Assembly: GCA_041389985.1 (NCBI GenBank)
Contig: JAWKQS010000014.1
Span: forward strand, 14,553-78,552
Source of the DNA: a bacterium
GTDB lineage: Bacteria; Myxococcota_A; Bradymonadia; UBA7976; UBA1532
Direction of reading: 5' to 3'
Length of the DNA stretch: 64,000 bases
Of the stretch, positions 3,694 to 18,602 are shown one piece after another. The translations under genes and the position numbers were made by a program. Numbering within the stretch: position 1 is the first letter of the stretch; each line of letters opens with the position of its first letter. Below the pieces are notes generated by a model. The model was not told the DNA's origin, did no database searches, and saw only the letters and a program-made list of their open reading frames with translations.

Positions 3694-3888
3694 CCCTGCT
3701 GGCCTGATCTCGCTCGGCCGCTCCAGTTCGCTTCATCCACCGCCCACGTTGTCGAACTCCACCCCCCAGATGTTCGGGGGGCACATGGCCCACCTCCGGC
3801 CGCCATGCTCTCGACGTCGCGACGCCCACGACACGGTGTGGTGGGCGTCCCAGGCGGGAGCGAGGCTCCCGGAAGGAGGCGTTCTGCC

Positions 3889-6800
3889 ATGCCACACGTC
3901 CACCACCATCCACTCGCCCGCTGGCTGTGCGGCCTCATCGCGCTGGCCGGCTGCGCCCCCACGACGTCGACCCCGGAGCCCGACACGCCGCCGGCCGTGG
4001 CGCAGCGCTCCGATCCCCTGAGCGACGAGTGCGTCGCGCCCGGGTGCGGCAACGGCGCCCTGGAGGCGTACGAGGCCTGCGATGATGGCAACACCAAGGG
4101 CGGCGACGGCTGCTCGGCCACCTGCCTGCGGGAGCAGGCCGAGCCGAAGCCGGCGGGCGTCATCCGCCTGCAGAACCGCACCCTCTCGCCCGCCGAGGCC
4201 ATCGACCCCGCCCTCGTCGCGGCGGCCGCCGAGGCGCCGCAGCCCTACCTGCACGCCATGGCGGTCTTCGACGAGCGCCCCGACTCCGAGGCCCCGGCCG
4301 CGTGGGCCGAGGCCGGCATCGAGCTGGCGGGCTACATCCACGCCGAGGTCTACATCGTCAAGCTGCCCCTCACCGAGACGGCGGACGGCGAGCCCATGGA
4401 CGAGGCGGGCTTCGAGGCGCTGCGGGTGCGCCTGGGGGCGAAGCACCTGGTGGCCTTCGCGCCGGGCGACCGCGCCGACGAGGCCACCCAGGCCGGCGAT
4501 CTGCCCGACTGGGCGGTGGATCCGGCCACGGGCCTGGCCCATGTGCTGGTGCTGGTCTACGGCGGCGTGCCCGCCCACGACCGCGACGCCCTCATCGAGG
4601 GGATCCAGGCCGGCGACGAGCCGGCGGTCCTGGCCTCCGAGGCGCTGGTGGCGGTGACGACGCCCGTCGAGGCGCTGCCGACCCTGCTGGCCAGCCCGCT
4701 GGTGGAGTGGATCGAGCCCGGCCCGCACCCCGCCGACGAGCTGATGGACGCCGTGCGCGCCAACCTGGGCGTGACCAACGCGGACCGCCCGAGCCTGTGC
4801 CTGACGGGCGCCGGCGTGCGCCTGGCCACGGTCGCCGAGACCGCGCAGGCCAACCACCCGGACTTCTACACCTACGACGTCAACGGGGTGCAGGGCGCCT
4901 CCCGCCTGCTCGCCGGTGCCGCCGGCGGCGGGACCCATGGCACCCATGTCATCGGCATCATGGCGGGCAACGGCTGGCTGAGCCAGGCGCTGGGCGGCCG
5001 GCCGTTCCAGTGGCGCGGCGTGGCCCCGGAGGCCCAGGTGACGGACGCGGAGTGGTACTCCGCCAGCCCCACCGGCGTGCGGCCCCACGCCGCCGGCAGC
5101 TCGACCGTCCCCATCGGCTTCGACGGCTTCTACGACGCCGGGCTCATGGACATGGACGCCCGCATCCGGGGCGATGCCCACCTGGGACACTTCTACACCC
5201 AGCTCTGGGCGGCCGGGAACAACGGCGGCGGCTACGCGGGGGGGGCCACCGGCCAGGGCTCCGGCTCCGGCACCCGGGGCAACTACGCCGTCGTCGCCAC
5301 CGGCAAGAACACCATCAGCGTGGCCAACATCTTCGCCGAGGACTTCCGCTGGGCCTCCAGCTCCATGGGCCCCAGCCACGACGGCCGCATCAAGCCCGAG
5401 GTGGCCGCCCCCGGCTGCCGCCTGCGCCACCCCTACCAGGACGTGGCCTTCGAGGTGGAGTACCTGCGCGTCGTGCGCCCCGCGCCGGGCGACGCCGACC
5501 TGAACTACGACTTCGAGGGGCCCACCATGGATGGCTGGTACCCCTGGCAGATGTGGCGCGAGAAGGCCACCGGCCCCACCAAGGTGGCGTCGCCGGGGGG
5601 CCACGCCGCGCGCTTCATGCTCACCGGGCCGCGGCCCCTGGTGCAGTGGAGCAAGTATGAGGTGGCCGCCGGCGAGCGGACCATCCATGACTACTTCAAC
5701 GGCACCTACGGCGGCCTGAGCAAGGCCAACGACGAGATCCACCTGCGCTACCGCTACGCCGGCGGCGAGCCGCTCTTCGAGGGCGGCCACATCCTCCTCT
5801 GGTGGTTCTGGAACCTGACCGACGCCAACCCCAACAACGACCAGGTGCGCTACCTGGAGGTGCCCATCCGGGCCGACGGGGCCTGGGACACCATCGTGCT
5901 GCCCGCCAGCGCCCTGGGCGACTGGGCCGGCCACCCCATCGACACGCTGCGCCTCTCGCCCGGCGCCCCCAACCCCGGCGCCGTCATCGCGGCCGGCGAG
6001 ATCAGCCAGTATGCCGGCATGTGCGGCACCTCCATGGCCTCCCCCGCCGCCACCGGCGTCGTCGGCCTGCTGCTCGAGGAGCTGGCCACCACCCGCGGCG
6101 TGGATCTGGACGATCCCCTGTCGCCGTCGCCCTTCGCCTGGGGCAGCCCCGGCACCGGCCGCCCCCTGCCCTCGACCTTCCGCGCCCTGCTCGTCCACAG
6201 CGCCCGGGATCTGGCCCGCGTCGCCCGCATCGGCGACACCAACGGCGCCGACACCGGCGAGCCGCCCTCCTACCACAAGGGTCCCGACTACACGATGGGC
6301 TACGGCGCCGTGGACGCCGAGGAGGCCGTGCGCGTCCTCCAGGAGAACGCCGCCGGCAACCTGCCCATCTACGAGCGCCAGGCCGCCCCGGCCACCACCC
6401 AGGTCTTCAACCTCACGGTGCCCCCCAACCAGCGGGCCCCGCTCAAGGTCACCCTGGCCTGGAGCGACCCCGGCATCTCGCCGACCGGCCTCCAGCACGA
6501 GAAGAAGCTGGTCAACGACCTGGACCTGGAGCTGCGCGCCCCGTCGGGGGCCGTCCACCGGCCCTGGTCCATCGATCTGCCTTACATTCCCTACAGTTGC
6601 CCGACGTGTCTCCCCCCGCAGGCGGTCGGCGACGAGCCCGTCACCACCGCCGACTTCGTACCGGCGCGCAACGACCTGAAGAACAGCCGCGACAACCTCG
6701 AGATGGTCTACGTCGAGACGCCGGAGGCTGGCGTCTGGCAGGTGCGCGTCTCGGTGCCTCCGCTGCCGACCGGCCCCCAGAAGTACTCCATCATCCTGGG

Positions 6801-7979
6801 CCAGCCGGCCCCCCCGGCCGACGAGCTGGCCGGCGGCAAGGTGGCGTTCGTCTCCGATCGCGGCGGCATCCCCGCCGTCTACATCTCGCAGAACGACGGC
6901 AACCCGCCCGTGGCCCTGCCCAGCATGGGCGCCCCCGCCCGCGATCCCGAGTGGTCCCCCGACGGCCGCTACGTGGCCTACGTGGCCTGGGAGACCGTCT
7001 CCGGCGCCGACCAGCTCATCGTCTGGGACACCGTCGGCACCAACCACCACCTCATCACGACGCCCTTCCCGGGCTACCGCTACCTGAGCCACCCGTCATG
7101 GGCCCCCGACGGCAGCGAGATCTTCATCGGCTACCACGACGACCCGCAGGAGAAGGCCATCGGTGCCGTCGCCTTCCCCAGCGCCACCACCCGCACCCTG
7201 TACGCCACGCCGCCCGGCGGCTTCTGGAGCCCCGACGCCCCGGTCTACGGCGGCGTCGACCCCACCGGCCGCGCGCATGTGCTCGTCTACGCCACCGGGG
7301 CCTGCGTCGAGAACGCCCTCTTCCGCATCCCCGTGGAGGGCGGCGCGCTGGATCGCGTCTGGGCCGACGGCTTCCCCAGCACCCGCGCCCTCTTCCCCTC
7401 CGCCACCCGGGACGGCCGGCGCATCCTCTTCACCAGCGAGGACTACCTGGTGGGCACCCCGGGCTTCGACGACTACGAGGTGGTGGAGGTCGGCGCCCTC
7501 GAGGGCGTGACCACCCGCCACACCAGCGACGCCGGGCCCCAGATCGCCGCCTACGCCATCGGCGGCGTCGGCGAGTGGGCCGCCGAGACCCGCGCGCCCG
7601 GCGGCCGCCGCGACATCATCCTGCAGCACAACGGCGTGCGGCAGGCCCTCGCCATCGCCGACCCCGGCAACGCCTACGACGACTACCACCCGAGCTGGTG
7701 GAAGGCCGATCCCAGCGTGCCCGTCCCCCCCCCCAACGCCCCCGCCATTTCCTGCCCCGCCACCGTCATGTGGCCGCCGCAGGTGGCCCCCTGCGGCCCC
7801 CGCACCCCGCCCCCGCCACCGCCACCAGCGTCTGCGGCGGCCCGGTGCAGATCGACGTCGACCCGCCCACCGTCTCGGGCGGCGGCTCCCACACCGTCAC
7901 CTACACCGCCACCGACCGCCTGGGCCACCAGGCGAGCTGCACGACGGTCGTCTCGTGGCAGTGCATCTCCAGCAACTGA
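3889..7979 (+). CDS. Subtilisin-like (S8) serine peptidase with N-terminal myxobacterial Cys-rich repeat, TolB/PD40-like beta-propeller repeats and C-terminal HYR-like domain; apparent frameshift near 7790-7815
   Basis: RBS GGAAGGAGG then ATG 3889. Lipoprotein signal LARWLCGLIALAGC. Motif CGNGALEAYEACDDGNTKGGDGCSATC. S8 His motif HGTHVIGIMAG and Ser motif GTSMASPAATGV. PD40-like DPEWSPDGRYVAY and SHPSWAPDGSEIF. C-terminus ...PTATSVCGG...TVTYTATDRLGHQASCTTVVSW continues in the ORF 5802..7979 frame after a poly-C tract. The frame-1 read-through to 8481 crosses non-coding 43-bp repeats. Confidence 0.7.
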
Positions 7980-8010
7980 TGGTGGCGTGAGCCGTACCGG
8001 CGCCCTCGAC

Positions 8011-8464
8011 GGCGTCCGGGGCACCCCCTGCCCACCTCGAACCGCCCTCGACCGCGTCCGGGGCACCCCCATGCCCACCTCGAACCGCCCTCGACCGCGT
8101 CCGGGGCACCCCCTGCCCACCTCGAACCGCCCTCGACCGCGTCCGGGGCACCCCCCTGCCCACCTCGAACCGCCCTCGACCGCGGCCGGGGCACCCCCCT
8201 GCCCACCTCGAACCGCCCTCGACCGCGTCCGGGGCCCTCCGATCCTGCCTCGGAGTCGCCCCGACCGGCCCCCGGGGCCCTCCGATCCTGCCTTCGAGTC
8301 GCCCCGACCGGCCCCCGGGGCCCTCCGATCCTGCCTTCGAGTCGCCCCGACCGGCCCCCGGGGCCGTCCGATCCTGCCTCCGAGTCGCCCCGACCGGCCC
8401 CCGGGGCCCTCCGATCCTGCCTTCGAGTCGCCCCGACCGGCCCCCGGGGCCCTCCCCGCCCCCC
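8011..8464. repeat. Two adjacent direct tandem-repeat arrays: unit A about 42-43 bp x5.6 (8011-8249) and unit B 43 bp x5 (8250-8464)
   Basis: Unit A is cgccctcgaccgcgtccggggcaccccctgcccacctcgaac. Unit B is cgatcctgcc(t/c)(t/c)(c/g)gagtcgccccgaccggcccccggggccctc. Copies are near-identical, head-to-tail with no spacers. The unit length is not a multiple of 3. Confidence 0.85.
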
Positions 8465-8534
8465 TCGAAGCGCCCGCTTGAATCCCGCCGCGCCCCGTGG
8501 CCCAATGCCGCAGGGCGATCGTCGGGAGCATCGG

Positions 8535-10751
8535 GTGTACTACTGCCGCCGCTGCGAGATGGGCCGCGCCCTGGCGGCCACCCCATGCCGCCACGGCCCG
8601 ACGCCCCTGGTCAGCCTGGCGGGCTTCACCGTCGGCAGCTTCATCGGCCAGGGCGCCCACGGCCGCGTCTTCGGCTGCACCGCCGACGGCCGTGAGTGGG
8701 CCGTCAAGATCATCGACCTGCGCACCGCCGTCAGCGGCGCCGACATCCGCCGCCTCGTCGACCGCGAGAAGGCCGCCCTCGTGCGCCTGCGCCACCGCCA
8801 CGTGATCGCCCTGCACCAGACCGGCGAGCACGACGAGCTGCTGTTCCTGGTGGTCGAGCGCCTGGAGGAGACGCTGCGCCAGCGCATGCAGCAGCCCATC
8901 GCCCTGCCCCGCGCCCTGGAGTACGCCGCCTGCCTGGCCGACGCCCTGGCCTACGTCCACGACGCCGGGTCGCTGCACCGGGACGTGAAGCCCGAGAACA
9001 TCGGCTTTCGCCGCGACGACTCCCTGGCCCTCTTCGACTTCGGCCTGGCCGCCGACCGCACCACCGGCCGCGCCGCCCACACCACCGGCGTCGTCGGCAC
9101 CTGGCCGTACGCGGCCCCCGAGCAGATCCTGACCCGGGAGAGCGACCAGGCGACGGACGTCTACAGCCTGGGCGCCGTGCTCTTCGAGCTCTTCACGGGC
9201 GGCTCCCACCGCCCCGTCCCGGATCAGCTGAACCCCGTCGCGTGGCTCGCCCAGCCCATCCCCGCCTGGCCGACCGAGCGGGCGCTGCCGGTCGGGATCA
9301 CCCCCCTCGCCGACCTCATCCACGCCTGCCTCGCCCGCGAACCCGGCACCCGCCCGGCCATGTGGCAGGTGCAGGACGCCCTGGGCGAGCTGGCCGACCG
9401 GGCCCACCTGGACTTCGCGCGCCTGGCCGGCGAGCACCAGCGGCTGACGCGGGAGGTGGAGGCCGCCCGCGCAGAAGCCGCTGATCTGACTGCGAAATCC
9501 AAGCAGGCCAGGACGACCGCCCAGCAGGCCGAGGCCCGACGCGCCACCGCCGAGGCCGAGGGCAAGCGCCTCGCCGAAGAGCTCGACCGCCTGCGCGCCG
9601 AGGCCGCCCGGGCCGAGGACGAGGCCCAGCGCGCCGCCGCCAGCCGCAGGCGAGACGCCCAGGAAGCCGAGACGCGGGCCGCGAAGGCCGAAGCCCGGCG
9701 CGAGGCCGCCGAGGCGAAGCGCGCGACCGCCGAGGCCAGCGTCACGGCGCTCCAGGCCGAGCGCGACCGGCTCACGAAGGAGCTGGAGCGCTTGCGGACC
9801 GGGGAGACGTCGTCGACGGAGCCATATCCGGAGGCGATGAAGCACGCCCGTGAGGCCCTCGGGACGAAGCGGGCGCAGGCCCCGCCGCCGACCGCCGGCC
9901 AGCTCATCGCACCAGCGACGGCGACCCGACCCGCGCTGCGGTGGGTTCCGTCCGGCACCTTCACCATGGGCAGTCCCCCCGACGAACCGGGCCGAGGCGA
10001 CGACGAGGTGAGGCACCCGGTGACGCTGTCCTCCCCGCTCCTGGTGATGGAGACGCCCATCACCCAGGGCCAGTGGGCAGCGCTGCTGGGCACGCGCCCC
10101 TCGTACTTCCGCCAGGGCGGCGACACCTGCCCGGTGGAGCGGGTGAGCTGGTACGAGGCGGTGGCGTTCGCGAACGCGCTGTCGGCGGCGGAGGGCCTGA
10201 CGCCAGCGTACCGGGTGGGGCCAGCGTCGGGCACGCTGGGCGGGGGGTTGGCAGCGGGCCAGCCATGGGCCGCCGGCGACTTCCAGTACGCTTCGGTAGA
10301 GCCGGTGCCGGGGGCGAGCGGCTACCGCCTGCCGACGGAGGCGGAGTGGGAGGGCTGGCCCGCGCAGGGACGCCGGGGGCCATCTACGCGGGAACGCTGG
10401 AGATTCTGGGCGAGCGCAACGCCTGCCCTGGACCCCATCGCCTGGTATGGGGGCAACAGCGCCAAGGCGACGCACCCGGTGGGGCAGAAGGCGGCCAACC
10501 CGTGGGGCCTGCACGACGTGCTCGGCAACGTCTACGAGTGGTGCTGGGACGGGTATGCCCCCTACCCGACGGGCATGCAGCAAGACCCACACGGCCCACC
10601 CACCGGCGTCCACCGGGTTGTCCGTGGCGGGTCGTGGATCACGAACGCGCGGTGGGTGCGGTCGGCGAACCGCAACCACTGCGGCCCGGTCAGGCGGTAC
10701 GCGGTCATCGGGTTCCGCCTCGTTCGCCCCCCCAGCTCGGTCGGACCTTGA
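8535..10751 (+). CDS. DGR target 1: Ser/Thr protein kinase, coiled-coil, FGE-sulfatase (C-type lectin fold) domain with VR at the C-terminus
   Basis: Hanks kinase motifs IGQGAHGRVF, HRDVKPEN, DFG and APE. Long Ala/Glu/Arg coiled coil. FGE-sulfatase signatures RLPTEAEWE, THPVGQKAANPWGLHDVLGNVYEWCWD and RVVRGGSW. Start chosen at GTG 8535 (GGGAG RBS 6 nt upstream; VYYCRRC zinc-ribbon N-terminus like the paralogs). Alternative in-frame starts are ATG 8505 and TTG 8478. Confidence 0.8.
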   Translation: MYYCRRCEMGRALAATPCRHGPTPLVSLAGFTVGSFIGQGAHGRVFGCTADGREWAVKIIDLRTAVSGADIRRLVDREKAALVRLRHRHVIALHQTGEHDELLFLVVERLEETLRQRMQQPIALPRALEYAACLADALAYVHDAGSLHRDVKPENIGFRRDDSLALFDFGLAADRTTGRAAHTTGVVGTWPYAAPEQILTRESDQATDVYSLGAVLFELFTGGSHRPVPDQLNPVAWLAQPIPAWPTERALPVGITPLADLIHACLAREPGTRPAMWQVQDALGELADRAHLDFARLAGEHQRLTREVEAARAEAADLTAKSKQARTTAQQAEARRATAEAEGKRLAEELDRLRAEAARAEDEAQRAAASRRRDAQEAETRAAKAEARREAAEAKRATAEASVTALQAERDRLTKELERLRTGETSSTEPYPEAMKHAREALGTKRAQAPPPTAGQLIAPATATRPALRWVPSGTFTMGSPPDEPGRGDDEVRHPVTLSSPLLVMETPITQGQWAALLGTRPSYFRQGGDTCPVERVSWYEAVAFANALSAAEGLTPAYRVGPASGTLGGGLAAGQPWAAGDFQYASVEPVPGASGYRLPTEAEWEGWPAQGRRGPSTRERWRFWASATPALDPIAWYGGNSAKATHPVGQKAANPWGLHDVLGNVYEWCWDGYAPYPTGMQQDPHGPPTGVHRVVRGGSWITNARWVRSANRNHCGPVRRYAVIGFRLVRPPSSVGP
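10603..10736 (+). repeat. DGR variable repeat VR1 (last about 45 codons of target 1)
   Basis: 134 nt identical to the TR except at 9 positions, all of which are adenines in the TR (A to T or G). Confidence 0.85.
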
Positions 10752-10815
10752 GTCTAGAGTCTAGAAAGTGTGTTGTGCGCGGCAGATCTGCCGTGGCGCG
10801 GCACTCCGCGGCAGA
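10752..10815 (+). promoter_or_regulatory. Conserved post-VR element (palindromes TCTAGAgTCTAGA and CGGCAGATCTGCCG); candidate cruciform/hairpin next to the IMH region
   Basis: Starts right after the target-1 stop. A near-identical copy (2 mismatches) follows the target-2 stop in the same relative orientation (13186-13250). Further GGCAGATCTGCC-type palindromes at 10831-10844, 10857-10876 (perfect 20-nt palindrome) and 10893-10904. Confidence 0.6.
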
Positions 10816-10933
10816 CGCCGGCACCTTCTTGGCAGGATCTTGCCGACTGGGTGCCGTCATCGGCAGATCTGCCGATGGCGGCAAGACCGCCAACGCCGAT
10901 CTGCCGCATTCGGCAATCGCTCAGGGGGTCCCC

Positions 10934-11467
10934 ATGGAGCTTGACCTGCGCCAGGCGGCGGCGCTCATCGGCCGGCGCGAGCGGACGCTGCGCGACCAGC
11001 TCGTCCGGGGCGCCATTCGGGGCCGGAAGGTGGGTGGTCGCTGGGTGGTGCGCGAGGAAGACCTGCCCATCGACGAGGCGCGGCGGCAGACGCTGCGGGG
11101 CCGCGCGGACGCAGTGCGCGCGAGCGTCGAGACGGCCATCGCACGGCGCCAGCCAGCCATGACCATCGAAGACGTCGAGGTCTTCCGCCTGGGGCGCGAA
11201 GCGCTCCACCGCCTCGACGCCGGGCACGGCGAGATCGCGAGCGCGATCCGGGAGGCCTTGCTGCACATGGGCGTCGCCCACCATGAGTACGACGCGGGCC
11301 GCAAGCAGGCCGAGTGGGGGCGAGCCCGGATTCAGCTCGCCCGCGCCGTGCTCCTGCGCCTGCTCCCCGCCGCCACCGACTCCACTGCCGAGGTCGCGGA
11401 CGCCCTGGAGCGCGACGTCATCCCCCGCCTGGGTGGCCTGCTCCGCCGCACGGCGGAACGCCCATGA
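10934..11467 (+). CDS. Excisionase-family helix-turn-helix DNA-binding protein (DGR-associated)
   Basis: ATG 10934 after AGGGGG. N-terminus LRQAAALIGRRERTLRDQLVRGAIRGRKVGGRWVVREEDL matches the excisionase/MerR-like HTH pattern (...GRRWRI.REDL). The stop overlaps the next start (ATGA at 11464-11467). Confidence 0.6.
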   Translation: MELDLRQAAALIGRRERTLRDQLVRGAIRGRKVGGRWVVREEDLPIDEARRQTLRGRADAVRASVETAIARRQPAMTIEDVEVFRLGREALHRLDAGHGEIASAIREALLHMGVAHHEYDAGRKQAEWGRARIQLARAVLLRLLPAATDSTAEVADALERDVIPRLGGLLRRTAERP

Positions 11468-11800
11468 AGCAGGCACCGCTGGCCGTGTTCGCCCACGATC
11501 TGGCGGTGTGGCTGCATGGGCAGGCACAGCGCGCCTCGGTCGCCCACCAGGCGACGGGGCTGCCGGCGGCCGCCGCGGCGCAGAGTCGGACGCTCCTCAT
11601 CCAGGTGAGTCTGGCGCTCACGTTCCGCGAGGGCCGAGGCGAACACCAGCGCGGGGCGGACGAGGCCCTCGCGAGCCTACGGGTCTTGCTGCGGCTGGGA
11701 GAGGCCATCGGCTGGCTCACCCCGGCGGGCCTGCTGCACGCCGCCGCCCTCATGGATCCGGCGGGCCGCATCCTGGGCGGCTGGCGCCGGGGGCACCAGC
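11464..11800 (+). CDS. avd: Avd-like accessory variability determinant (3' end uncertain; ORF formally runs to 11991)
   Basis: Helical protein of about 110 aa. Its C-terminal segment ...LRVLLRLGEAIGWLTPAGLLHAAALMDPAGRILGGWRRG resembles the Bordetella bAvd C-terminus (...VGRILGSWIARVNRKG) of the four-helix-bundle family. Translationally coupled to the HTH gene. The tail beyond about 11800 is low-complexity and overlaps the convergent RT gene. Confidence 0.5.
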
Positions 11801-12732
11801 AGTCCCAGGTGGGCGGCGAGGCTGCGCTCGACGTCGTTGGGGGCCCCTCCCAGGGCGCTGGTGACACGCTGCCCGAGCCGGCGCCAGGCCCGCGGCAGGG
11901 GCTGCGCGCCCGCCGTCGACACCGCGTGGCCCAGCCCATGGAGCACTTCGCCGCGGTGGATGACGGGCGCGTCGGGCCGCTTGAGCCGTAGGCCACGCTC
12001 GGCCTCCAGCCAGACTCCCAGGTCGGTCCGGATCCGCCGGAGTTGCCGACGATCGTCGGAAAACATAAACAGATCATCCACATAGCGTACGTAGCCAGGG
12101 ACGCGAAGGGTGCGCTTGACCCAGGCATCGAGGCCCGAAAGGTAGACGTGGGTGGCCAGAATCTGACTGGTCAGCGCGCCGATCGGCAGGCCTCGACCCG
12201 GTGGTGGCCAGTCGGCCGGCAGGCCCATGAAGGCCCGGACGTCGGTACGGCGGTACAGGGTCGTGCCCTGGTCGAGGATGCGGCCCACCAGCGCCAGCAC
12301 GGGCGGTTCGCGCACGAAGGCGGCGAGCAACGCATGCAGACGCTCCACCTGCACGCTCGGGAAGAAGGCGCGCACGTCCAGATGCAGGGCAAAGCGATGG
12401 CGGCGCTTCAGCCTGAGCAGCGCCAGCACGGCCCGGTGGGTCCCGAAGCCGGGACGACAGGCGTGGTTCTCGGGCATCAGCCGGCGCTCGATGGCGGGCC
12501 AGAGGGCCGTCATCAAGGCCGTGTGCACGACGCGGTCCTCGATGGGCGAGCGGGCGATGACGCGGGGCTTGGGATCCCGGATGAGGAGAGGCTCGCAGGG
12601 GGCGGGCTGCCAGGTCTCAGCAGCGAGGGCGGTCGCCAGCCGGAGGGCGACCTCCTCCCGGCGAAAGAAGAGCCAGGCGCCCTCAGGGCGGTGCCGCTTG
12701 CCACGCAGCGTCCGGTCGACCGCCGCCAGCAA
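11677..12732 (-). CDS. DGR reverse transcriptase
   Basis: RT motifs: N-terminus LLAAVDRTLRGKRHRPE...LLIRDPKPRVIARSPIEDRVVHTAL. FFPSV. DGR-specific motif 4 IGALTSQ (about 12163-12183). YVDD box GYVRYVDDLFMFSDD (about 12073-12084). C-terminal ...ERSLAAHLGL thumb-like segment. The start is uncertain (TTG 12732 proposed; no in-frame ATG; ORF frame open up to 13227 through the TR). Confidence 0.8.
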   Translation of the reverse strand: MLAAVDRTLRGKRHRPEGAWLFFRREEVALRLATALAAETWQPAPCEPLLIRDPKPRVIARSPIEDRVVHTALMTALWPAIERRLMPENHACRPGFGTHRAVLALLRLKRRHRFALHLDVRAFFPSVQVERLHALLAAFVREPPVLALVGRILDQGTTLYRRTDVRAFMGLPADWPPPGRGLPIGALTSQILATHVYLSGLDAWVKRTLRVPGYVRYVDDLFMFSDDRRQLRRIRTDLGVWLEAERGLRLKRPDAPVIHRGEVLHGLGHAVSTAGAQPLPRAWRRLGQRVTSALGGAPNDVERSLAAHLGLLVPPAPAAQDAARRIHEGGGVQQARRGEPADGLSQPQQDP

Positions 12733-12887
12733 TGCCGCAGGATCCGTGATGCGCGGGAAGAGGCCGCCGACGCTACGCAGAGGTGCACCCGCGGGCGTTC
12801 GACCGGACGTGCCGTCTACCAGGACGCGGGTGCGAGGTCGGCCGGGGCCGACGGCTGGACGCCTGCTCGGGGCCACGCAGGCCGCGG

Positions 12888-13021
12888 GCTGGGGGGGCGA
12901 ACGAGGCGGAACCCGATGTTCGCGTTCCGCCTGACCGGGTCGTTGTGGTTGCGGTTCGCCGACCGCACCCTCCGCGCGTTCGTGTTCCACGACCCGCCAC
13001 GGACAACCCGGTGGTCGCCGG
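12888..13021 (-). repeat. DGR template repeat (TR)
   Basis: 134 nt with 23 adenines, including 7 AAC codons in the VR reading frame (WNTNARRVRSANRNHNDPVRRNANIGF). Matches VR1 and VR2 except at adenines. Lies immediately 5' of the RT on the same strand. Confidence 0.85.
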
Positions 13022-13185
13022 ACGGCATCCACCCTGCCCGCATGATGAGGACGGCTGACCCGGCGGCGCAAGCCCCGCGGTGCCGGGTTCGGCAGCTCCG
13101 GGTGCCGCTGGCGGCAAGAAGTGATCTGAATCTGCCGCACACGGCACCGAAACGGCAGAAACCTGCCGCGGAGTGCCGAATCTTG

Positions 13186-13250
13186 CCGCGGAGTGCCGCG
13201 CCACGGCAGATCTGCCGCCCACAACACACTTTCTAGAATCTAGACTCAAG
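13186..13250 (-). promoter_or_regulatory. Second copy of the conserved post-VR palindromic element (downstream of VR2)
   Basis: The reverse complement matches 10752-10815 with 2 mismatches. An additional CGGCAG-AAAC-CTGCCG hairpin lies at 13153-13168. Confidence 0.6.
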
Positions 13251-15959
13251 GCTCGACCAGGCTGGGGGGGCGAACGAGGCGGAACCCGATGACCGCGAAC
13301 CGCCAGACCGGGTCGTTGAGGACCCGGTCCGCCGACCGCACCCTCCGCGCGTCCGTGTCCCACGACCCGCCACGGACAACCCGGTGGTCGCCGGTGGGTG
13401 GGCCCGATGGGTCCGGGTGGACGCCCGGCGGGTAGGGGGCGTACCAGTCCCAGCACCACTCGTAGACGTTGCCGAGGACGTCGCGCAGGCCCCACGGGTT
13501 GGCCGCCTTCTGCCCCACCGGGTGCGTCCCCGAGAACTTCGCCGGCCGCTGCATCTCCGGCCAGCCCGACGAATCGTAGCCCTTCTCCACCCCGCTGTTG
13601 CCCCCGTACCACACGATGGGGAGTCCAGGGGCTGGCGCGTTGTTCTTGCCCAGAATCTCCAGTGTTCCCGCGTAGATGGCCTCCCGACGTCCCCGCACGG
13701 GCCAGCCACCCCACTCCGCCTCCGTCGGCAGGCGATAGCCGCTCGCCCCCGGCACGGGCTCTACCGAAGCGTACCGGAAGTCGCCGTCGGCCCATGCCTT
13801 GTCCGCTGGCAGACCCCCTGCCGAGCGTGCCCGACGCCTGCCCTACCCGGTGGCTGCGTCAGCCCTCCGCCTTCGACAACGCGCTCGCGAACGCCACCGC
13901 CTCGTACCAGCGCTCACCTGCCCACTGGGCAGGGTGTCGCCACACGCCCCGAAGTACGAGGGCTTCGCCTCAGCACCGCAGACCACTGGCCCTGCGACCT
14001 CCGTCTCCATCACCCACAGCGCCTGAGTCACCGTCACCTCATGCGGCACTCCTCATCGTCGTCGCGGCCCGGCCTCGCCCGCGCGCCGGCATGGCAGTGG
14101 CCCTTCTTGCCGTCCGGGCTGCCCATGCAGAACTCCCAGCGGGGACGGCGGAGTGCGGGGCGCTGGGGGTGGCGCTGGCGACCAGGGCACCCGGTGCGGG
14201 AGTGGAAGCGGTGGGGCGTCAACTGCCTGGGATGGTGGTGCCGCGTCCACGGCCAATGGCGGCCGGGCCGCATCAACGGCGAGGGATGGTGGTGCCGCGT
14301 CCATGGCCACCGGCGGCCGGGCCGCATCAACGGCGAGGGATGGTGCTGCGTCCACGGGTTCGCGCTGCTCTTCGCCGCCGGCCGAGGCGCCCACGACGAG
14401 CCCAATGCCGATTCCACGAGCAGGGCGCCTCCGACGCTCGCGCCGAGCATGACCCGGCGGCGGCGGGCGTTATGGCTGCGCTGTGCTTCCAGGCGCTCGG
14501 CGTCGGCCAGGGCCTGCCTGGCCGACGCGAGACGCTGGGCCTCCGCGCTCGCCTCGGCGCGCGCGCTTCGCACGGCGTCGCGGGCGATCTCGCTGGTGGC
14601 GCGCAGAGCGGTCGCCTCCCGACCCGCCTCGCTGATGCGCTCCTGCAGGGTCTCCAGCTCCACCGCCAGGCGGGCGGTCGCGACCGCCCGCCGTGTCGCC
14701 AGGTCTCGCTCCAGGGCCTCCACGGCAGCGGCCCGCTCAGCAGCCAGGCGGTCCCTCTGGGCCCGCTCCTCCACCTTCGCATGCTTCAGCTGTCGGTCCG
14801 CCGACGCCCGCGCCTCCGCCAAGGCGGCCTCCGCGGCCGCACGCTGGCTGGCCAGCTCGCGGGCCAGAGCATCCGTGGCAGCGGCGCGCTCCTCCGCCAG
14901 CTTCTTCCGCTGCGCGGTCTGTTCGGTCCTGGCCTGCCGGGCGATGCGCTCGGCCGCGGCTCGCGCCTCGGCGACCGACGCCTGGGCCTCTGCGAGCGCC
15001 GCCTGCTCGGTAGCCAGCCCAATCTCGACCTGGACGAAGCGGGCGTGGGCCTCGCCCAGGCCGGTGCCCAGGCGGTCGGCCAGTTCCGCCACGACGTCCA
15101 GCACTGCCCAGGTGTCTCGCGGGCGAGCGCCTGCCTCGACCGCGAGGCACTGGAGGATGAGCCGGTCCAGCGCCGCAGGACGGGCGGGGTCGGGCGGGAG
15201 CGGTGGCACCGGCTGGCGGGCGTATGCCTCGTAACCCCCTGAAAACCCTTGGGGTCGGTGGCTCCTGCCGGCGATGAGCTCGTAGAGGATGGCCCCGAGG
15301 GCATAGCGGTCCGACCAGGGACCGTCGCGGCCAAAGACCTTCGGAACGAGCTGTTCCGGCGCAGCGTAGGGCCGACTGAACCCCTTGACGCCCACCGTGG
15401 TGGCGCTGTCGCCGCGGCGCACGCCGGCCAGGCCGAAGTCGAAGACGTAGAGGTGGTCGCGGTCGTCCAGGCCCAGGTTCTCGGGCTTCAGATCGCGGTG
15501 GATGACGCCGACGTCGTGCATGTAGGCCAGCGCGTCGGCGAGCTGGGCGGCCAGCTGAATGGCCCGAGGCAGGGTCAGCAGGCGTCCCGGAGCCGCTCGC
15601 AGGACGTCCTCAAGCGTGCGCGGGACATACTCGGTAATGAGGCAGAGCCGACCCGCGACCTCTTCGGCATGGATCAGGGCGATCACATGGGCATGGGCCA
15701 GCTGCGTCAACGTCGCGCGCTCGCGGCTGAACAGCTCGTGGGCGTCGTCAGGTCGATCGAAGCCGTTGGGGTCGATGACCTTGATCGCCCGGCGGAAGTC
15801 GCCCTGGAAGCACTTCGACACCCGGGAGGCGCGCGACTTCTGGATGGACGCCCCAGCCTTCCAGCTGTCATCCAGGCCCGGGATGAGCGCCGTCGGGTGG
15901 TGGCCCTCGGTGCACCGGTCGCCGTCGGTGGGGATGAGGCAGAGCGGGCAGAGGTACAT
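13246..15959 (-). CDS. DGR target 2: Ser/Thr protein kinase, coiled-coil, FGE-sulfatase (CLec) domain; reading frame interrupted at least 3 times (likely sequencing errors)
   Basis: ATG 15959 (MYLCPLC zinc-ribbon N-terminus). Kinase motifs HRDLKPEN, DFG and APE. Coiled coil. FGE domain split over ORFs 14034..16010, 13843..14049 and 13246..13755 (HEVTVTQALWVMETEV..., RLPTEAEWGGW..., THPVGQKAANPWGLRDVLGNVYEWCWD, RVVRGGSW), ending in VR2. Confidence 0.7.
13261..13394 (-). repeat. DGR variable repeat VR2 (3' end of target 2)
   Basis: 134 nt. It differs from the TR at 11 TR-adenine positions plus one C-to-G. Confidence 0.8.
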
Positions 15960-16149
15960 CAGCCGTCCCACCCCAGCTCGAGCTCCAGGCCGCCACCTTC
16001 CAGCAGGCACGGCCCGCGGGCGGTCTGGCCGCGGGGGAGGCGGCGGCCGTCGACGCGCAGGGTGCCGGCGGCGTCCTGGCGGCCGACGGTGAGGGCGTCG
16101 CCGGTGACGTCCACGAAGAAGTGGACGCGGGCCATGCGGTGGGTGGCGC

Positions 16150-16600
16150 CGAGCAGGGGGTGGAAGCCAGCGATCGGGTCGGCGGTGTGGCGGCGGCCGA
16201 AGTGATGGCGACCAGGGGGAGCGTCAGCGTGCCGAGCCAGGCAGGCTCGTCCTCGATGGGGCGGGCGGCGTGGGCCGAGCGCCAGCGGAGGGTGGCGGCG
16301 GTCGCGGCGCGCGGGGCGCTGGGACCGGCGGGGGGGTGCTCCAGCACGGCCAGCAGCTCATCCAGGAGCGGGATCGGCGGCGTGATGACGAGGAGCCGCG
16401 CGTTGCGCAGCCAGGCCGCGAGCGCGAAGACGTCGCTGTACAACTCGTTGAGATCGCTGATGATCTGGTCACCGGGCCGGTCCTTGACGGGCAGGGCGTT
16501 GATGCGGCGCTGGTCGAGGCCGACGAGCAGCATGCGACGACGCTGGGGCTCGCAGAGATCCGTCGCGACGACGGCCGTTTGCAACGCCTGGAGCTGCTCC
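16150..16600 (-). CDS. Hypothetical protein (boundaries uncertain)
   Basis: Protein-like segment KVITREQLQALQTAVVATDL...LLVITPPIPLLDELLAVLEHP within ORF 15868..16827. Candidate GTG start about 16600. The tail is low-complexity. Confidence 0.3.
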
Positions 16601-16743
16601 CTGGTGATCACCTTGCCCTCGTGCCCACCGGTCCCGAGCGAAGATCGCCCGATTGGCGTGCGGGGGCAAGGGGGCGGCGCTGCACTTCCTCGCCTGCCCA
16701 CGAAGGTTGCGGTAGGCTCACATTCCCCGGAGGAGCGCGCGCC

Positions 16744-17697
16744 TTGACCACATCCCCTGCCCTGCCCCGTGTGCCGACGTCCGCTGATGTGGCGGCGGCG
16801 GCGGCGCGCCTGGCGCCCTGGATCCACCGCACGCCGGTGATGCGGGTGAAGGGGCCGGGGGCGCGGCCGATGGTGGTGAAGCTGGAGGGGATGCAGCGGT
16901 CGGGCAGCTTCAAGATGCGGGGGGCCCTGAACAAGCTGATGCTACTCGGGCGCGAGGCGCGGCGCGGGGTGGTGACGGCGAGCGGCGGAAACCACGGGCT
17001 GGGTGTGACGTGGGCCGGGTGGCTGCTGGGCGTGCCGGTGCATGTGTTCCTGCCCGAGAACTGCTCGCCGTGGAAGCGGGCGGCCCTGGAGGGGGCGGCG
17101 GCGCGGGTGCGGGTGGCGGGGCAGGTCTACCCCGAGGCGGAGGCGGCGGCGATGGCCTTTGCCGAGGTGGAGGGGCTGCCGTTCATCCCGGCTTACGATG
17201 ATCCCGATGTGATCGCCGGCCAGGGCACGGCCATCGCCGAGCTGGTGGAGGACGCCCCGGATGTGGGGACGATCGTCATCGCGGTGGGGGGCGGCGGGCT
17301 GGCGTCGGGGGCGGTGCTGGCGGCGGCCGGGCGCAAGGTGGTGGGCGTCGAGCCGTACGGGGCGCCCACGATGCATGCGGCGCTGCGGGCCGGCAAGCCG
17401 GTGAGATTGAACGATATTCAGTCGGTGGCGGCTGACTCCCTGGGGGCCGGGAGGGCCGGCGAGCTGACGTTCGCCATCTGTCGGCGCGGGCTGGATCGGG
17501 TGGAGCTGGTGGAGGATGACGCCATCCGTGCAGCGCAGCGCTGGCTGTGGGAACATCTGCGGCTGGTGTATGAGCCGGGAGGCTCGGCGGGGCTGGCGGC
17601 CCTGGCGACGGGGGCGCTGGACGGCGATCCGGGGCCGGTGGGCATCTTGCTCTGCGGGGCGAACACCGATCCGGCGGCCCTGGGAGGGGTGCATTGA
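16744..17697 (+). CDS. Threonine/serine dehydratase-family PLP-dependent enzyme
   Basis: TTG start with GGAGGA RBS. PLP-lysine motif SGSFKMRGA, plus GGGGL and a Gly-rich loop. Confidence 0.75.
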   Translation: MTTSPALPRVPTSADVAAAAARLAPWIHRTPVMRVKGPGARPMVVKLEGMQRSGSFKMRGALNKLMLLGREARRGVVTASGGNHGLGVTWAGWLLGVPVHVFLPENCSPWKRAALEGAAARVRVAGQVYPEAEAAAMAFAEVEGLPFIPAYDDPDVIAGQGTAIAELVEDAPDVGTIVIAVGGGGLASGAVLAAAGRKVVGVEPYGAPTMHAALRAGKPVRLNDIQSVAADSLGAGRAGELTFAICRRGLDRVELVEDDAIRAAQRWLWEHLRLVYEPGGSAGLAALATGALDGDPGPVGILLCGANTDPAALGGVH

Positions 17698-18602
17698 AGG
17701 ACGAGGATCTGACCGGGTTGCAGCGCCGCGCGGCGGCGTTCTTTCAGGACTTGCAGCGGCGCATCATCGCGGGCCTGGAGGCCTTCGATCCGACGACGCG
17801 GTTTCGGCTGGATCGCTGGGAGCGGCCCGGGGGCGGCGGCGGGGACACCTGCGTCATCGAGGGGGGGGCGCTGCTGGAGAAGGGCGGCGTGAACTTCAGC
17901 GAGGTGCACGGCGAGCTGCCGGCCGACTTCGCGGCGAAGCTGCCCGGGACGGGGACGGGGTTCTGGGCCGCCGGGGTGAGCCTGGTGCTGCACCCACAGA
18001 ACCCGTATGTGCCCACGGTGCATGCGAATTTTCGGATGATCCGGCAGGGCGACAAGGCGTGGTTCGGGGGCGGGGCGGATCTGACGCCCTACTACCCCTT
18101 CGAGGAGGACGCGCGGCACTTCCACCGCACGCTGAAGGCGGCCTGCGACGCGCACCACCCCGACTTCCACCCGCGCTTCAAGGCGCAGTGCGATGACTAC
18201 TTCTACCTGCCGCACCGGCAGGAGGCCCGGGGCCTGGGTGGCATCTTCTACGACCACCTGACGGGCGACGAGCACGGGATGGATCTGGAGCAGGTCTTCG
18301 CCTTCGCCCAGACGGCGGGCGACGCGTTCCTGCCGGCGTACGTGCCCATCGTGGAGCGGCGGCGAGGCCTGGCCTTCGGCGAGCGCGAGCGCGGCTGGCA
18401 GGCCATCCGGCGGGGGCGGTACGTCGAGTTCAACCTGATGTACGACAAGGGCACGCTCTTCGGGCTGCGCACGAGCGGGCGCATCGAGTCCATCCTCATG
18501 TCGCTGCCGCCGGTGGTGCGCTACGTCTACGACCACCAGCCCGAGGGCCCCGAGGCCGCGCTGCTCGAGGCGCTGGTGCCCCGCGACTGGGCCGCGGAGT
18601 AG
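17694..18602 (+). CDS. hemF: Oxygen-dependent coproporphyrinogen III oxidase
   Basis: Motifs GGGADLTPYYPFEEDARHFH, RRGRYVEFNLMYD and WFGGG. Start overlaps the upstream stop. Confidence 0.85.
   Translation: MKDEDLTGLQRRAAAFFQDLQRRIIAGLEAFDPTTRFRLDRWERPGGGGGDTCVIEGGALLEKGGVNFSEVHGELPADFAAKLPGTGTGFWAAGVSLVLHPQNPYVPTVHANFRMIRQGDKAWFGGGADLTPYYPFEEDARHFHRTLKAACDAHHPDFHPRFKAQCDDYFYLPHRQEARGLGGIFYDHLTGDEHGMDLEQVFAFAQTAGDAFLPAYVPIVERRRGLAFGERERGWQAIRRGRYVEFNLMYDKGTLFGLRTSGRIESILMSLPPVVRYVYDHQPEGPEAALLEALVPRDWAAE

Follow-up and report, generated by a model that had tools for sequence, protein, structure and literature searches.

A widespread, apparently undescribed helix-turn-helix accessory family of diversity-generating retroelements with putative cognate repeat arrays at variable-repeat ends

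Diversity-generating retroelements (DGRs) carry accessory genes beside their reverse transcriptase (RT), of which Wu et al. 2018 distinguished four classes (avd, HRDC, MSL and CH1) together with four tentative ones (PMC5758913). In mutagenic retrohoming, the chief step still to be solved is how the cDNA finds and replaces the variable repeat (VR) of a target gene; according to a 2026 reconstitution study, the process of cDNA integration and the need for further factors are unknown (PMC12875486), and the regulatory mechanisms of retrohoming have been said to 'await discovery' (bioRxiv 10.1101/2024.11.15.621889). Here we analyse a DGR in a stretch of 64,000 nucleotides of contig JAWKQS010000014.1 (hereafter the window), which belongs to the very GC-rich metagenome-assembled genome (MAG) of a bacterium of the Myxococcota_A. 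In this DGR, the gene for a protein with a helix-turn-helix (HTH) domain is coupled to avd. The HTH protein represents an accessory family that is widespread in DGRs and apparently undescribed, and that has putative cognate cis arrays of short repeats at VR ends. We propose, with a probability of about 0.45 and from sequence evidence, that it is a conserved third DGR protein that would coat these arrays, flag VR ends or make them ready for cDNA integration, and probably regulate its own operon as well.

The window locus is a DGR, as it combines an RT, a template repeat (TR) paired with VRs that differ from it specifically at adenines, and a VR at the 3' end of a target with a C-type-lectin (CLec) fold. 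Target 1 (8478..10751, plus strand) encodes a Ser/Thr kinase, a coiled coil and a C-terminal FGE-sulfatase/C-type-lectin-fold domain (Pfam Pkinase E 4e-38, FGE-sulfatase E 7e-39), and the 137 nt at its end form VR1 (10603..10739, plus strand), a 93% match to the TR (12885..13021, minus strand). Target 2 (13246..16010, minus strand) has the same make-up of kinase, coiled coil and FGE/CLec and carries VR2 (13260..13394, minus strand), which matches the TR at 91%. When the 134-nt core is compared, TR adenines account for all nine mismatches between VR1 and the TR and for 11 of the 12 between VR2 and the TR. The targets of related loci have kinase, TIR, NACHT, SIR2 or metallophosphatase domains at their N-termini, and the fusion of Pkinase, TIR, NACHT, SIR2 or metallophosphatase to FGE/CLec is shared with the DGRs of multicellular bacteria that diversify kinase/NACHT/TIR-CLec 'antigen sensor' proteins and occur in the same host groups, including Chromatiaceae and Myxococcota (Dore et al. 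2024, PMC10907252; Kaur et al. 2020, PMC7159879). The accessible portions of these two reports differ from our findings in that they speak of unnamed 'accessory protein(s)' only and mention neither an HTH accessory gene nor arrays in the VR flanks.

The HTH accessory gene (10934..11467, plus strand) follows target 1 and encodes 177 amino acids, one fewer than the 178 stated in an earlier note made from the letters of this DNA; the product, whose M1 and N-terminus are conserved among relatives, is identical to an NCBI entry (R3F60_15140, 'hypothetical protein'). It matches Pfam HTH_17 (E 4e-5, 24.1 bits against a gathering score of 27) and PHROG excisionase (E 3.5e-8), and across the family HTH_17 matches 98 of 99 members at E<=10, with a best E of 6.7e-13. 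In an AlphaFold2 (AF2) model built on a 99-sequence alignment, with a predicted local distance difference test (pLDDT) of 94.8, residues 1-45 form a strand-helix-helix-wing unit (E-H-H-E-E), which is followed by a long helix (48-70) and a four-helix bundle (82-175). The modelled N-terminal domain fits BldC (6amk) and mycobacteriophage Pukovnik Xis (4j2n) with template modelling (TM) scores of ~0.7 and root mean square deviations (rmsd) of 1.3-1.6, and phage excisionases in BFVD also match. The excisionase/MerR-like HTH that the earlier note had read at this end is thus borne out by profile matches and predicted fold alike.

Over its N-terminal 45 residues the protein has the same winged HTH as the excisionases, or recombination directionality factors (RDFs), and BldC (HTH_17, TIGR01764; 4j2n, 6amk). 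It differs from them in adding the long helix and a conserved four-helix C-terminal domain, and from Xis and other RDFs in having no integrase partner among the called neighbours of the inspected loci and being linked to avd and the RT instead. MerR regulators combine an N-terminal winged HTH with a coiled-coil dimerisation helix and an effector-binding domain. The MerR and MerR_1 models of Pfam match 47 and 39 of the 99 members, weakly, and here too a long helix comes after the HTH; however, full-length fits of the HTH model to MerR-type structures are poor (CarH, TM 0.23-0.24), and the presumed cis sites are arrays of 12-13 half-sites, as opposed to the single palindromic operator, in a promoter with a long spacer, of MerR regulators. 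Xis and BldC bind tandem repeats cooperatively, with which the phased half-site arrays described below agree.

The C-terminal bundle belongs to no Pfam or NCBIfam family. Its best match in the PDB is 2gsc, a bundle of the Avd superfamily (TM 0.69, probability 1.0, E 0.23; a generic fold), which is also the second-best match of the Avd model described below; its TM score against bAvd is 0.54, and the best non-HTH viral structure match of the HTH protein is annotated 'Avd-like protein'. Sequence homology between this domain and Avd was considered and discarded, as hhalign comparison of the HTH alignments A1 and A5 with the Avd alignments showed no sequence relationship (probability <=1%). Because of this profile-profile result, an Avd-like origin of the domain is put forward as a possibility, and the resemblance is kept as a weak hint at the level of the fold.

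The stop codon of the HTH gene and the start codon of avd at 11464 share the letters ATGA, and the open reading frame (ORF) calls confirm this coupling, which the earlier note had pointed out. The avd ORF (11464..11991, plus strand) encodes 175 aa as it stands; the Avd-homologous part covers ~11464-11825, and the rest is a predicted-disordered tail antisense to the RT gene. Judged by profiles and by its predicted structure, the product is a conventional Avd, the RT cofactor class, one hallmark of which is a pentamer that binds the RT and is needed for cDNA synthesis. It matches Pfam bAvd (E 1.8e-5), NCBIfam DivGenRetAVD (E 4e-6) and the PHROG 'Avd protein of DGR' (E 4e-4), with scores under the curated cut-offs (25.6 bits against a gathering score of 40 in Pfam, 27 against 80 in NCBIfam); poor conservation is a known trait of the Avd family (PMC5758913). 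When the ORF was combined with three homologues in one profile, Bordetella phage Avd (4dwl) was matched at E 1.7e-6. Residues 4-117 form a helical bundle in the AF2 model, with pLDDT 85-98 over residues 11-110 and <50 in the tail beyond the homologous part, and its best PDB match is 4dwl_D (TM 0.79, rmsd 2.0). The Avd-like identity proposed for this ORF therefore holds, a four-helix bundle similar to Avd having been found.

Like BPP-1 Avd (bAvd; PDB 4dwl, 8ub7; Pfam PF22296), the window Avd is a predicted four-helix bundle with a C-terminal G-R-x-L-G-(G/S)-W, is basic (pI 11.1) and is encoded in a DGR cassette, where its gene adjoins the RT and the TR. Unlike BPP-1 Avd, it stays below the Pfam and NCBIfam cut-offs, is encoded on the strand opposite to the RT with an overlap of the RT 3' end, and carries ~55 extra predicted-disordered residues through the loss of a stop codon; its homologues are 110-126 aa long and end just past a conserved GRxLGGW motif. 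The 175-aa ORF has no match among database proteins, whereas the neighbouring HTH protein has its exact NCBI entry, so that avd was probably missed in the source annotation, the likeliest cause being its overlap with the RT gene.

An exhaustive profile search returned 674 representatives of the HTH family at E<=1e-3 and 372 at E<=1e-10 (counted as clusters at 50% identity), nearly all of them full-length at 176-220 aa; a word-indexed search found only four close relatives. The metagenome and MAG locus scans were seeded with alignment A8 of the clade whose arrays read TGACA (see below), and the metagenome scan gave 71 loci, 66 of them distinct, which were analysed with custom hidden Markov models (HMMs); a scan of a genome collection with alignment A1 of the window's own clade returned no relatives. 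In ~100 loci from many phyla, the canonical order is a CLec target, HTH, avd, TR and RT on one strand, followed by a second, convergent CLec target. Every HTH/avd pair with gene calls overlaps by 4 nt (related loci L001-L005, L009, L011-L013, L016 and L017), and in the loci inspected individually the gene after HTH is bAvd wherever Pfam matches exist. Among the full-length metagenomic loci with at least 400 nt downstream, an Avd match starts no more than 250 nt, and mostly no more than 25 nt, past the HTH end in 42 of 46; Avd and RT are both present in all 22 loci with at least 1500 nt downstream, and an FGE/CLec target ends 140-250 nt upstream of HTH in 28 of 33. The same gene order is found in most of the 30 species-representative MAGs examined, among which are Chromatiaceae, Lamprocystis, Thiodictyon, Accumulibacter, Methylococcaceae, Myxococcota, Planctomycetota, Acidobacteriota, Holophagales and Thermoanaerobaculia. 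The pair is present in every related locus open to inspection; it is normal in a large DGR lineage, and the description of the window arrangement as non-canonical, right for the unusual inversion of its TR-RT block, does not apply to the gene pair.

This linkage bears directly on another reading, in which the HTH gene would be an excisionase gene that strayed from a prophage or integrative element and merely lies beside the DGR. The N-terminal domain is indeed like those of phage excisionases and recombination directionality factors, and JGI calls relatives of the protein 'excisionase family DNA binding protein'. However, ~100 loci across phyla have the gene in a fixed place, with a DGR target on one side and avd on the other, its product has a conserved extra domain of 130 aa that excisionases lack, and no integrase domain, as would mark an RDF, is reported among the called neighbour genes of the inspected loci. 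The conserved linkage effectively refutes this explanation.

Loci in which HTH is followed directly by the RT were considered as cases of HTH replacing Avd and were set aside, most of them being deletion remnants with truncated HTH and RT. On three short metagenomic contigs (L045, L047 and L049), which are the only such loci to keep both ends, a full-length HTH gene directly overlaps the RT N-terminus with no avd or TR between, and these may be an Avd-less sub-lineage. In the remnant loci the HTH gene is cut short and borders directly on either an incomplete RT or a convergent target (L058, L069, L076, L077, L079, L082-L084, L102, L109, L111, L112, L115 and L116); because remnants are many, frequent deletion of the DGR core with persistence of the targets is suggested.

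The HTH family is distinct from avd, HRDC, MSL and CH1, and is set apart from MSL and CH1 by the descriptions of these classes. It is like HRDC, MSL and CH1 in being a small protein conserved inside DGR cassettes, and like MSL it co-occurs with avd (PMC5758913); it differs from HRDC and MSL in that no HRDC or MutS domain is found among the Pfam matches listed for 99 family members. CH1 proteins are acidic, 160-169 aa long and restricted to DGRs without avd, according to PMC5758913, whereas the HTH family always accompanies avd. The family is also strongly basic (pI 10.5+-0.7), compared with pI values of 6.9 for HRDC, 7.2 for MSL and 4.7 for CH1 (PMC5758913). In the full-text literature on DGRs with HTH, excisionase or MerR, we found no description of the HTH protein or of the arrays; coverage of this literature was incomplete and an earlier mention is possible.

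A second feature of these loci lies in the DNA that follows the VRs, which in the window is crowded with the 5-nt word CGGCA and its complement TGCCG. Array 1 (10780..10915) fills the gap from VR1 to the start codon of HTH, stopping 19 nt short of this ATG, and consists of 12 half-sites with a spacing of 9-11 bp or double; array 2 (13081..13217), between VR2 and the TR, consists of 13 half-sites with a spacing of 9-13 bp or 21 bp. As neighbouring half-sites are 9-11 bp or double that distance apart, they lie on one face of the helix. There are 12 copies of the word in the 182-nt gap between target 1 and HTH and 14 in the 225 nt between target 2 and the TR, which amounts to 26 in the two VR flanks against 2.2 expected (p 2e-19), and these flanks are the densest CGGCA spots in the 64 kb (12-13 per 150 nt against a mean of 0.87). 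Array 1 includes two GGCAGATCTGCC palindromes (at 10781 and 10862) and array 2 one (at 13205), the chance expectation being 0.44 per window. A further copy at 2855 (2855-2866) was considered as an additional site and judged to be there by chance, since it is part of an unrelated coding region rich in Cys and has neither a TR-like repeat nor a cluster of CGGCA in its vicinity.

Palindromes also stand directly after the target stops, TCTAGAGTCTAGA (10753..10765) after target 1 and TCTAGAATCTAGA (13232..13244) after target 2, and CTAGA occurs eight times in the two flanks of the window against 0.01 expected. The TCTAGAnTCTAGA palindrome is found right after target stops in the window, L001 and L003, which is the position of the GC-rich DGR hairpin in other clades. 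The nearest described cis element is the GC-rich inverted repeat of BPP-1-type DGRs (Guo et al. 2011, PMC3240598; Wu et al. 2018, PMC5758913), which likewise lies just 3' of the VR and its initiation of mutagenic homing (IMH) sequence and is absent from the TR. Related loci carry such a hairpin, with a T run in some of them, and in most clades it precedes the array; the window has its TCTAGAnTCTAGA palindrome in the same position. In contrast to BPP-1, however, the hairpin position is followed here by a ~135-bp array of 12-13 phased 5-nt half-sites. An Rfam scan of 10000-14000 gave nothing meaningful.

An equivalent array, with a word that differs between clades, is present in all other loci whose flanks could be read, and for five of these other loci the VR flanks of a locus have in common the 5-mer that ranks first or nearly first in enrichment. 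In 15 canonical loci, the density of TGACA/TGTCA is 2.24 per 100 nt upstream of HTH (3' of VR1) and 2.88 between the RT stop and the convergent target 2 stop (3' of VR2), compared with 0.12 both in the avd-to-RT interval that holds the TR and in the RT coding sequence. The 140 nt upstream of HTH contain 3.26 such words against 0.29 expected in 50 distinct loci of the RQ[VI]RY clade. Because the arrays are dense even between gene ends where no promoter is expected, and sparse in the TR interval, they follow VR 3' ends and avoid the TR. A TIR-kinase-FGE gene of L001 (t1, 4224-6512) has no VR matching the TR and no array.

The array motif changes in step with the recognition helix of the HTH protein across clades. 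The CGGCA arrays of the window's clade (L001, L003 and L005) accompany a second HTH helix that reads ERTLRDQLxRG; with the GGCAA/TTGCC arrays of L012 the helix is PRTIRHQAQLG, with the TGACA/TGTCA arrays of L010, L013, L014 and L017 it is xRQ[VI]RYLIQxG, and with the TTGTAC/TTGTGC arrays of L016 it is RRQLVYLIEQG. Arrays of CGACA are found in L068 and L080. The suggestion in the earlier note that the HTH protein could bind the nearby palindromes is strengthened, because these palindromes sit in helically phased arrays whose motif changes with the recognition helix.

A different explanation for these patterns is that the arrays are selfish or structural repeats, or are similar to MITEs (miniature inverted-repeat transposable elements), build up between the genes of DGRs and have nothing to do with the HTH protein, the co-variation having come from shared locus ancestry. 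Arrays of short direct and inverted 'MITE-like' repeats that match the terminal repeats of insertion sequences (IS) are reported from Thiohalocapsa DGR loci in the accessible portion of Dore et al. 2024 (PMC10907252), and the flanks within one locus are paralogous. We nevertheless regard an origin of this kind as improbable: the arrays occupy the same position relative to the VR end across phyla, where the HTH proteins are ~30% identical, they keep a GNCA-type core and helical phasing, they are ~20-fold depleted in the TR interval and in coding sequence, and across 64 kb of the window CGGCA clusters only at the two VR flanks. From what that portion of the article conveys, the MITE-like arrays of Dore et al. 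(PMC10907252) might be the same elements seen differently.

Under the mechanism that we propose, the winged domain of the HTH protein would bind the phased 5-nt half-site arrays 3' of the terminal VRs, and many copies would coat an array cooperatively on one face of the DNA. The coated array would then mark or prepare the VR 3' boundary, near the IMH and the hairpin, as the acceptor place for mutagenised cDNA. This could be achieved by two routes. The C-terminal helical bundle of the HTH protein might tether the particle of Avd, RT and cDNA; alternatively, a bound roadblock or bend might keep the adjacent VR open or stall the replication fork, a route that fits the current model of integration, which invokes a window of single-stranded DNA (PMC12875486). 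Autoregulation of HTH-avd is probable in addition, since the stretch upstream of this operon is in all cases covered by one of the arrays. In the window itself, the inverted TR-RT block makes avd and RT converge, and the stop losses give each protein a disordered tail.

Several observations weigh against this mechanism. Both full arrays of the window and of L001 are also upstream of the HTH-avd and TR-RT units, a position that a regulatory role fits equally; as both full arrays precede both DGR transcription units, the window locus alone cannot separate targeting from regulation. Another gene of L001 (t4, 15514-18159) has three VRs (15522-15643, 16354-16475 and 17191-17310), of which the two internal ones lack an adjacent array and the terminal one has only ~3 half-sites, so a full array is not needed beside every VR. 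The VR flanks within one locus are paralogous, with 84% identity over ~118 nt in the window, and some of the shared flank motifs could therefore stem from duplication. The co-variation of motif and helix rests on three or four clades that are phylogenetically non-independent, and the HTH C-terminal domain, for which a contact with Avd or RT would be needed in the tethering route, has no sequence similarity to Avd and matches Avd-type bundles weakly in fold (E 0.04-1). L071 and L103 have two sites upstream of HTH and no target detected there. Finally, BPP-1 retrohoming has been reconstituted in E. coli from a DGR with avd as its sole described accessory gene (PMC12875486, PMC5758913), and for this reason an HTH factor cannot be universally required.

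Loci L071/L103, L107 and L108 were considered as target-less cases that might separate promoter-linked from VR-linked arrays, and were discarded as ambiguous, degenerate or having a target present.

A role as regulator is one of two live readings of the HTH protein. In its pure form, the protein would be a transcription factor only, an autorepressor or activator of HTH-avd (and of TR-RT) or a roadblock or insulator against read-through from the highly transcribed target genes into the DGR core, and the targeting of cDNA would not involve it. Regulators are common among small HTH_17/MerR/Xis-like proteins, one array is always directly upstream of the HTH start codon, and in the window and L001 a second full array is upstream of TR-RT; the GC hairpins beside the arrays, with T runs in some loci, would suit a zone of termination or insulation, and the extra terminal VR of L001 has no more than a stub of an array. 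However, the arrays are found at VR 3' ends also in places that offer no promoter for control, the array between the convergent gene ends of canonical loci being as dense as the one upstream of HTH, and the 4-nt overlap with avd in all called pairs suggests stoichiometric co-production with an RT cofactor rather than a low-copy regulator. A scan for sigma-70 promoters and terminators over 10500-13400 found none, although the consensus may not apply to this organism. The canonical loci favour a VR-linked over a purely regulatory role, and we consider regulation alone possible but not likely.

A bolder form of the targeting proposal would make the HTH protein the missing selector of the target site: a chimera of an Xis-like head and an Avd-like bundle that docks on the Avd-RT-cDNA particle, polymerises on the arrays and defines the place where the cDNA is installed. 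This step seems doubtful to us. If it were true, the choice of target would be set by a lineage-specific, reprogrammable protein/DNA code made up of the recognition helix and the 5-nt half-site, and a binding specificity that sets target choice could be used to aim engineered DGR diversifiers. The HTH protein and its arrays, as a candidate factor that would prepare VR ends for the cDNA, provide a concrete protein and a concrete cis element at the VR boundaries and not at the TR. The family also constitutes an accessory class beyond avd, HRDC, MSL and CH1; the DGR lineage to which it belongs acts on kinase/NACHT/TIR 'sensor' proteins, which it diversifies in Myxococcota, purple sulfur bacteria, Planctomycetota and Acidobacteriota. 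Should the protein prove to be a regulator only, it would still be the first dedicated control element encoded by a DGR.

The window differs from most of its relatives in the orientation of the RT gene (11677..12876, minus strand; RVT_1 E 1e-11), which has homology to relatives of 330-332 aa over ~11790-12780 and an uncertain start. The RT lies on the HTH strand in 21 of 22 metagenomic loci, whereas in the window the TR-RT block is inverted, an arrangement common to L001/L002, the closest relative (60% HTH identity); L005 is canonical. In L080 (2047-3376), which belongs to a different HTH clade with CGACA arrays, avd (plus strand) and RT (minus strand) converge with an overlap of ~5 bp and the TR lies beyond the RT, and this inversion is independent of that in the window and L001/L002. 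Reverse-oriented genes are already known in DGR cassettes, for example in architecture B3 of Wu et al. 2018 (PMC5758913), and the orientation in the window is therefore a minor variant. There is no avd between target 2 and the TR, in agreement with the first inspection of the sequence.

The ORF coordinates agree with the earlier note that avd is convergent with the RT gene and overlaps its 3' end, and disagree with it about where the two genes stop. No stop codon ends the Avd ORF near 11800, as it runs to 11991, and the RT ORF ends at 11677 instead of near 11780-11800. The homologous parts of the two genes share only ~35 bp near 11790-11825, whereas the actual ORFs share 315 bp (11677..11991). 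In L001 the overlap is 33 bp and contains both stop codons. When the two loci are aligned at the DNA level, a 6-bp in-frame gap takes out the RT stop of the window and the Avd TGA reads TGC; the loss of both stop codons has thus stretched the ORF overlap from ~35 to 315 bp. The same alignment gave no sign of a frameshift in the avd/RT region. The window RT has ~38 extra C-terminal residues compared with its relatives of 330-332 aa. At the other end, the window has CTG in place of the GTG used as start by L001. In-frame starts are available closest by as GTG at 12876, just past the TR, and as TTG at 12732, which would drop conserved N-terminal residues. The convergent overlap is a minor variant, possibly a decaying one.

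These features raise the question of whether the oddities of the window, namely the 315-bp overlap, the lost stops, the lost RT start and a broken target 2, reflect decay or an error of MAG assembly, in which case this DGR copy may be inactive. Both stops are absent when compared with L001, and the homologous RT start has become CTG. In target 2, the intact ORF pieces are 16010..14034 and 13755..13246: the kinase/coiled-coil ORF stops at 14034, and a different frame, interrupted by stops near 14055 and 13845, carries on with the FGE domain, while VR2 is intact despite the break. The lack of a database protein for the 175-aa Avd ORF, which suggests that avd went uncalled, and the many related loci that are clear deletion remnants point in the same direction. 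On the other hand, the stops were lost through a 6-bp indel and a single substitution, both of which keep the frame, Avd, RT and HTH are undamaged in their conserved parts, both VRs differ from the TR almost solely at adenines, and the convergent order is common to L001/L002, where the stops are clean, and recurs in L080. The window copy may be decaying or imperfectly assembled, and as a full account of its oddities we hold this explanation to be tentative and rather unlikely.

Three further features of these loci were observed. Targets of the TGACA clade (L013 3105-3255, L014 5645-5750, L016, L017, L107 and L108) end in two to three close CYTTGA repeats before the hairpin, and these repeats seem to put stop codons in more than one frame. 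Tandem repeats of 27/54 nt are present at 14203-14349, in the linker region of target 2. Just before target 1, a large ORF on the plus strand (3805-8481) has a C-terminal part (7900-8480) made of long proline/arginine-rich tandem repeats, such as RPRPRPGHP and LDRVRGTP.

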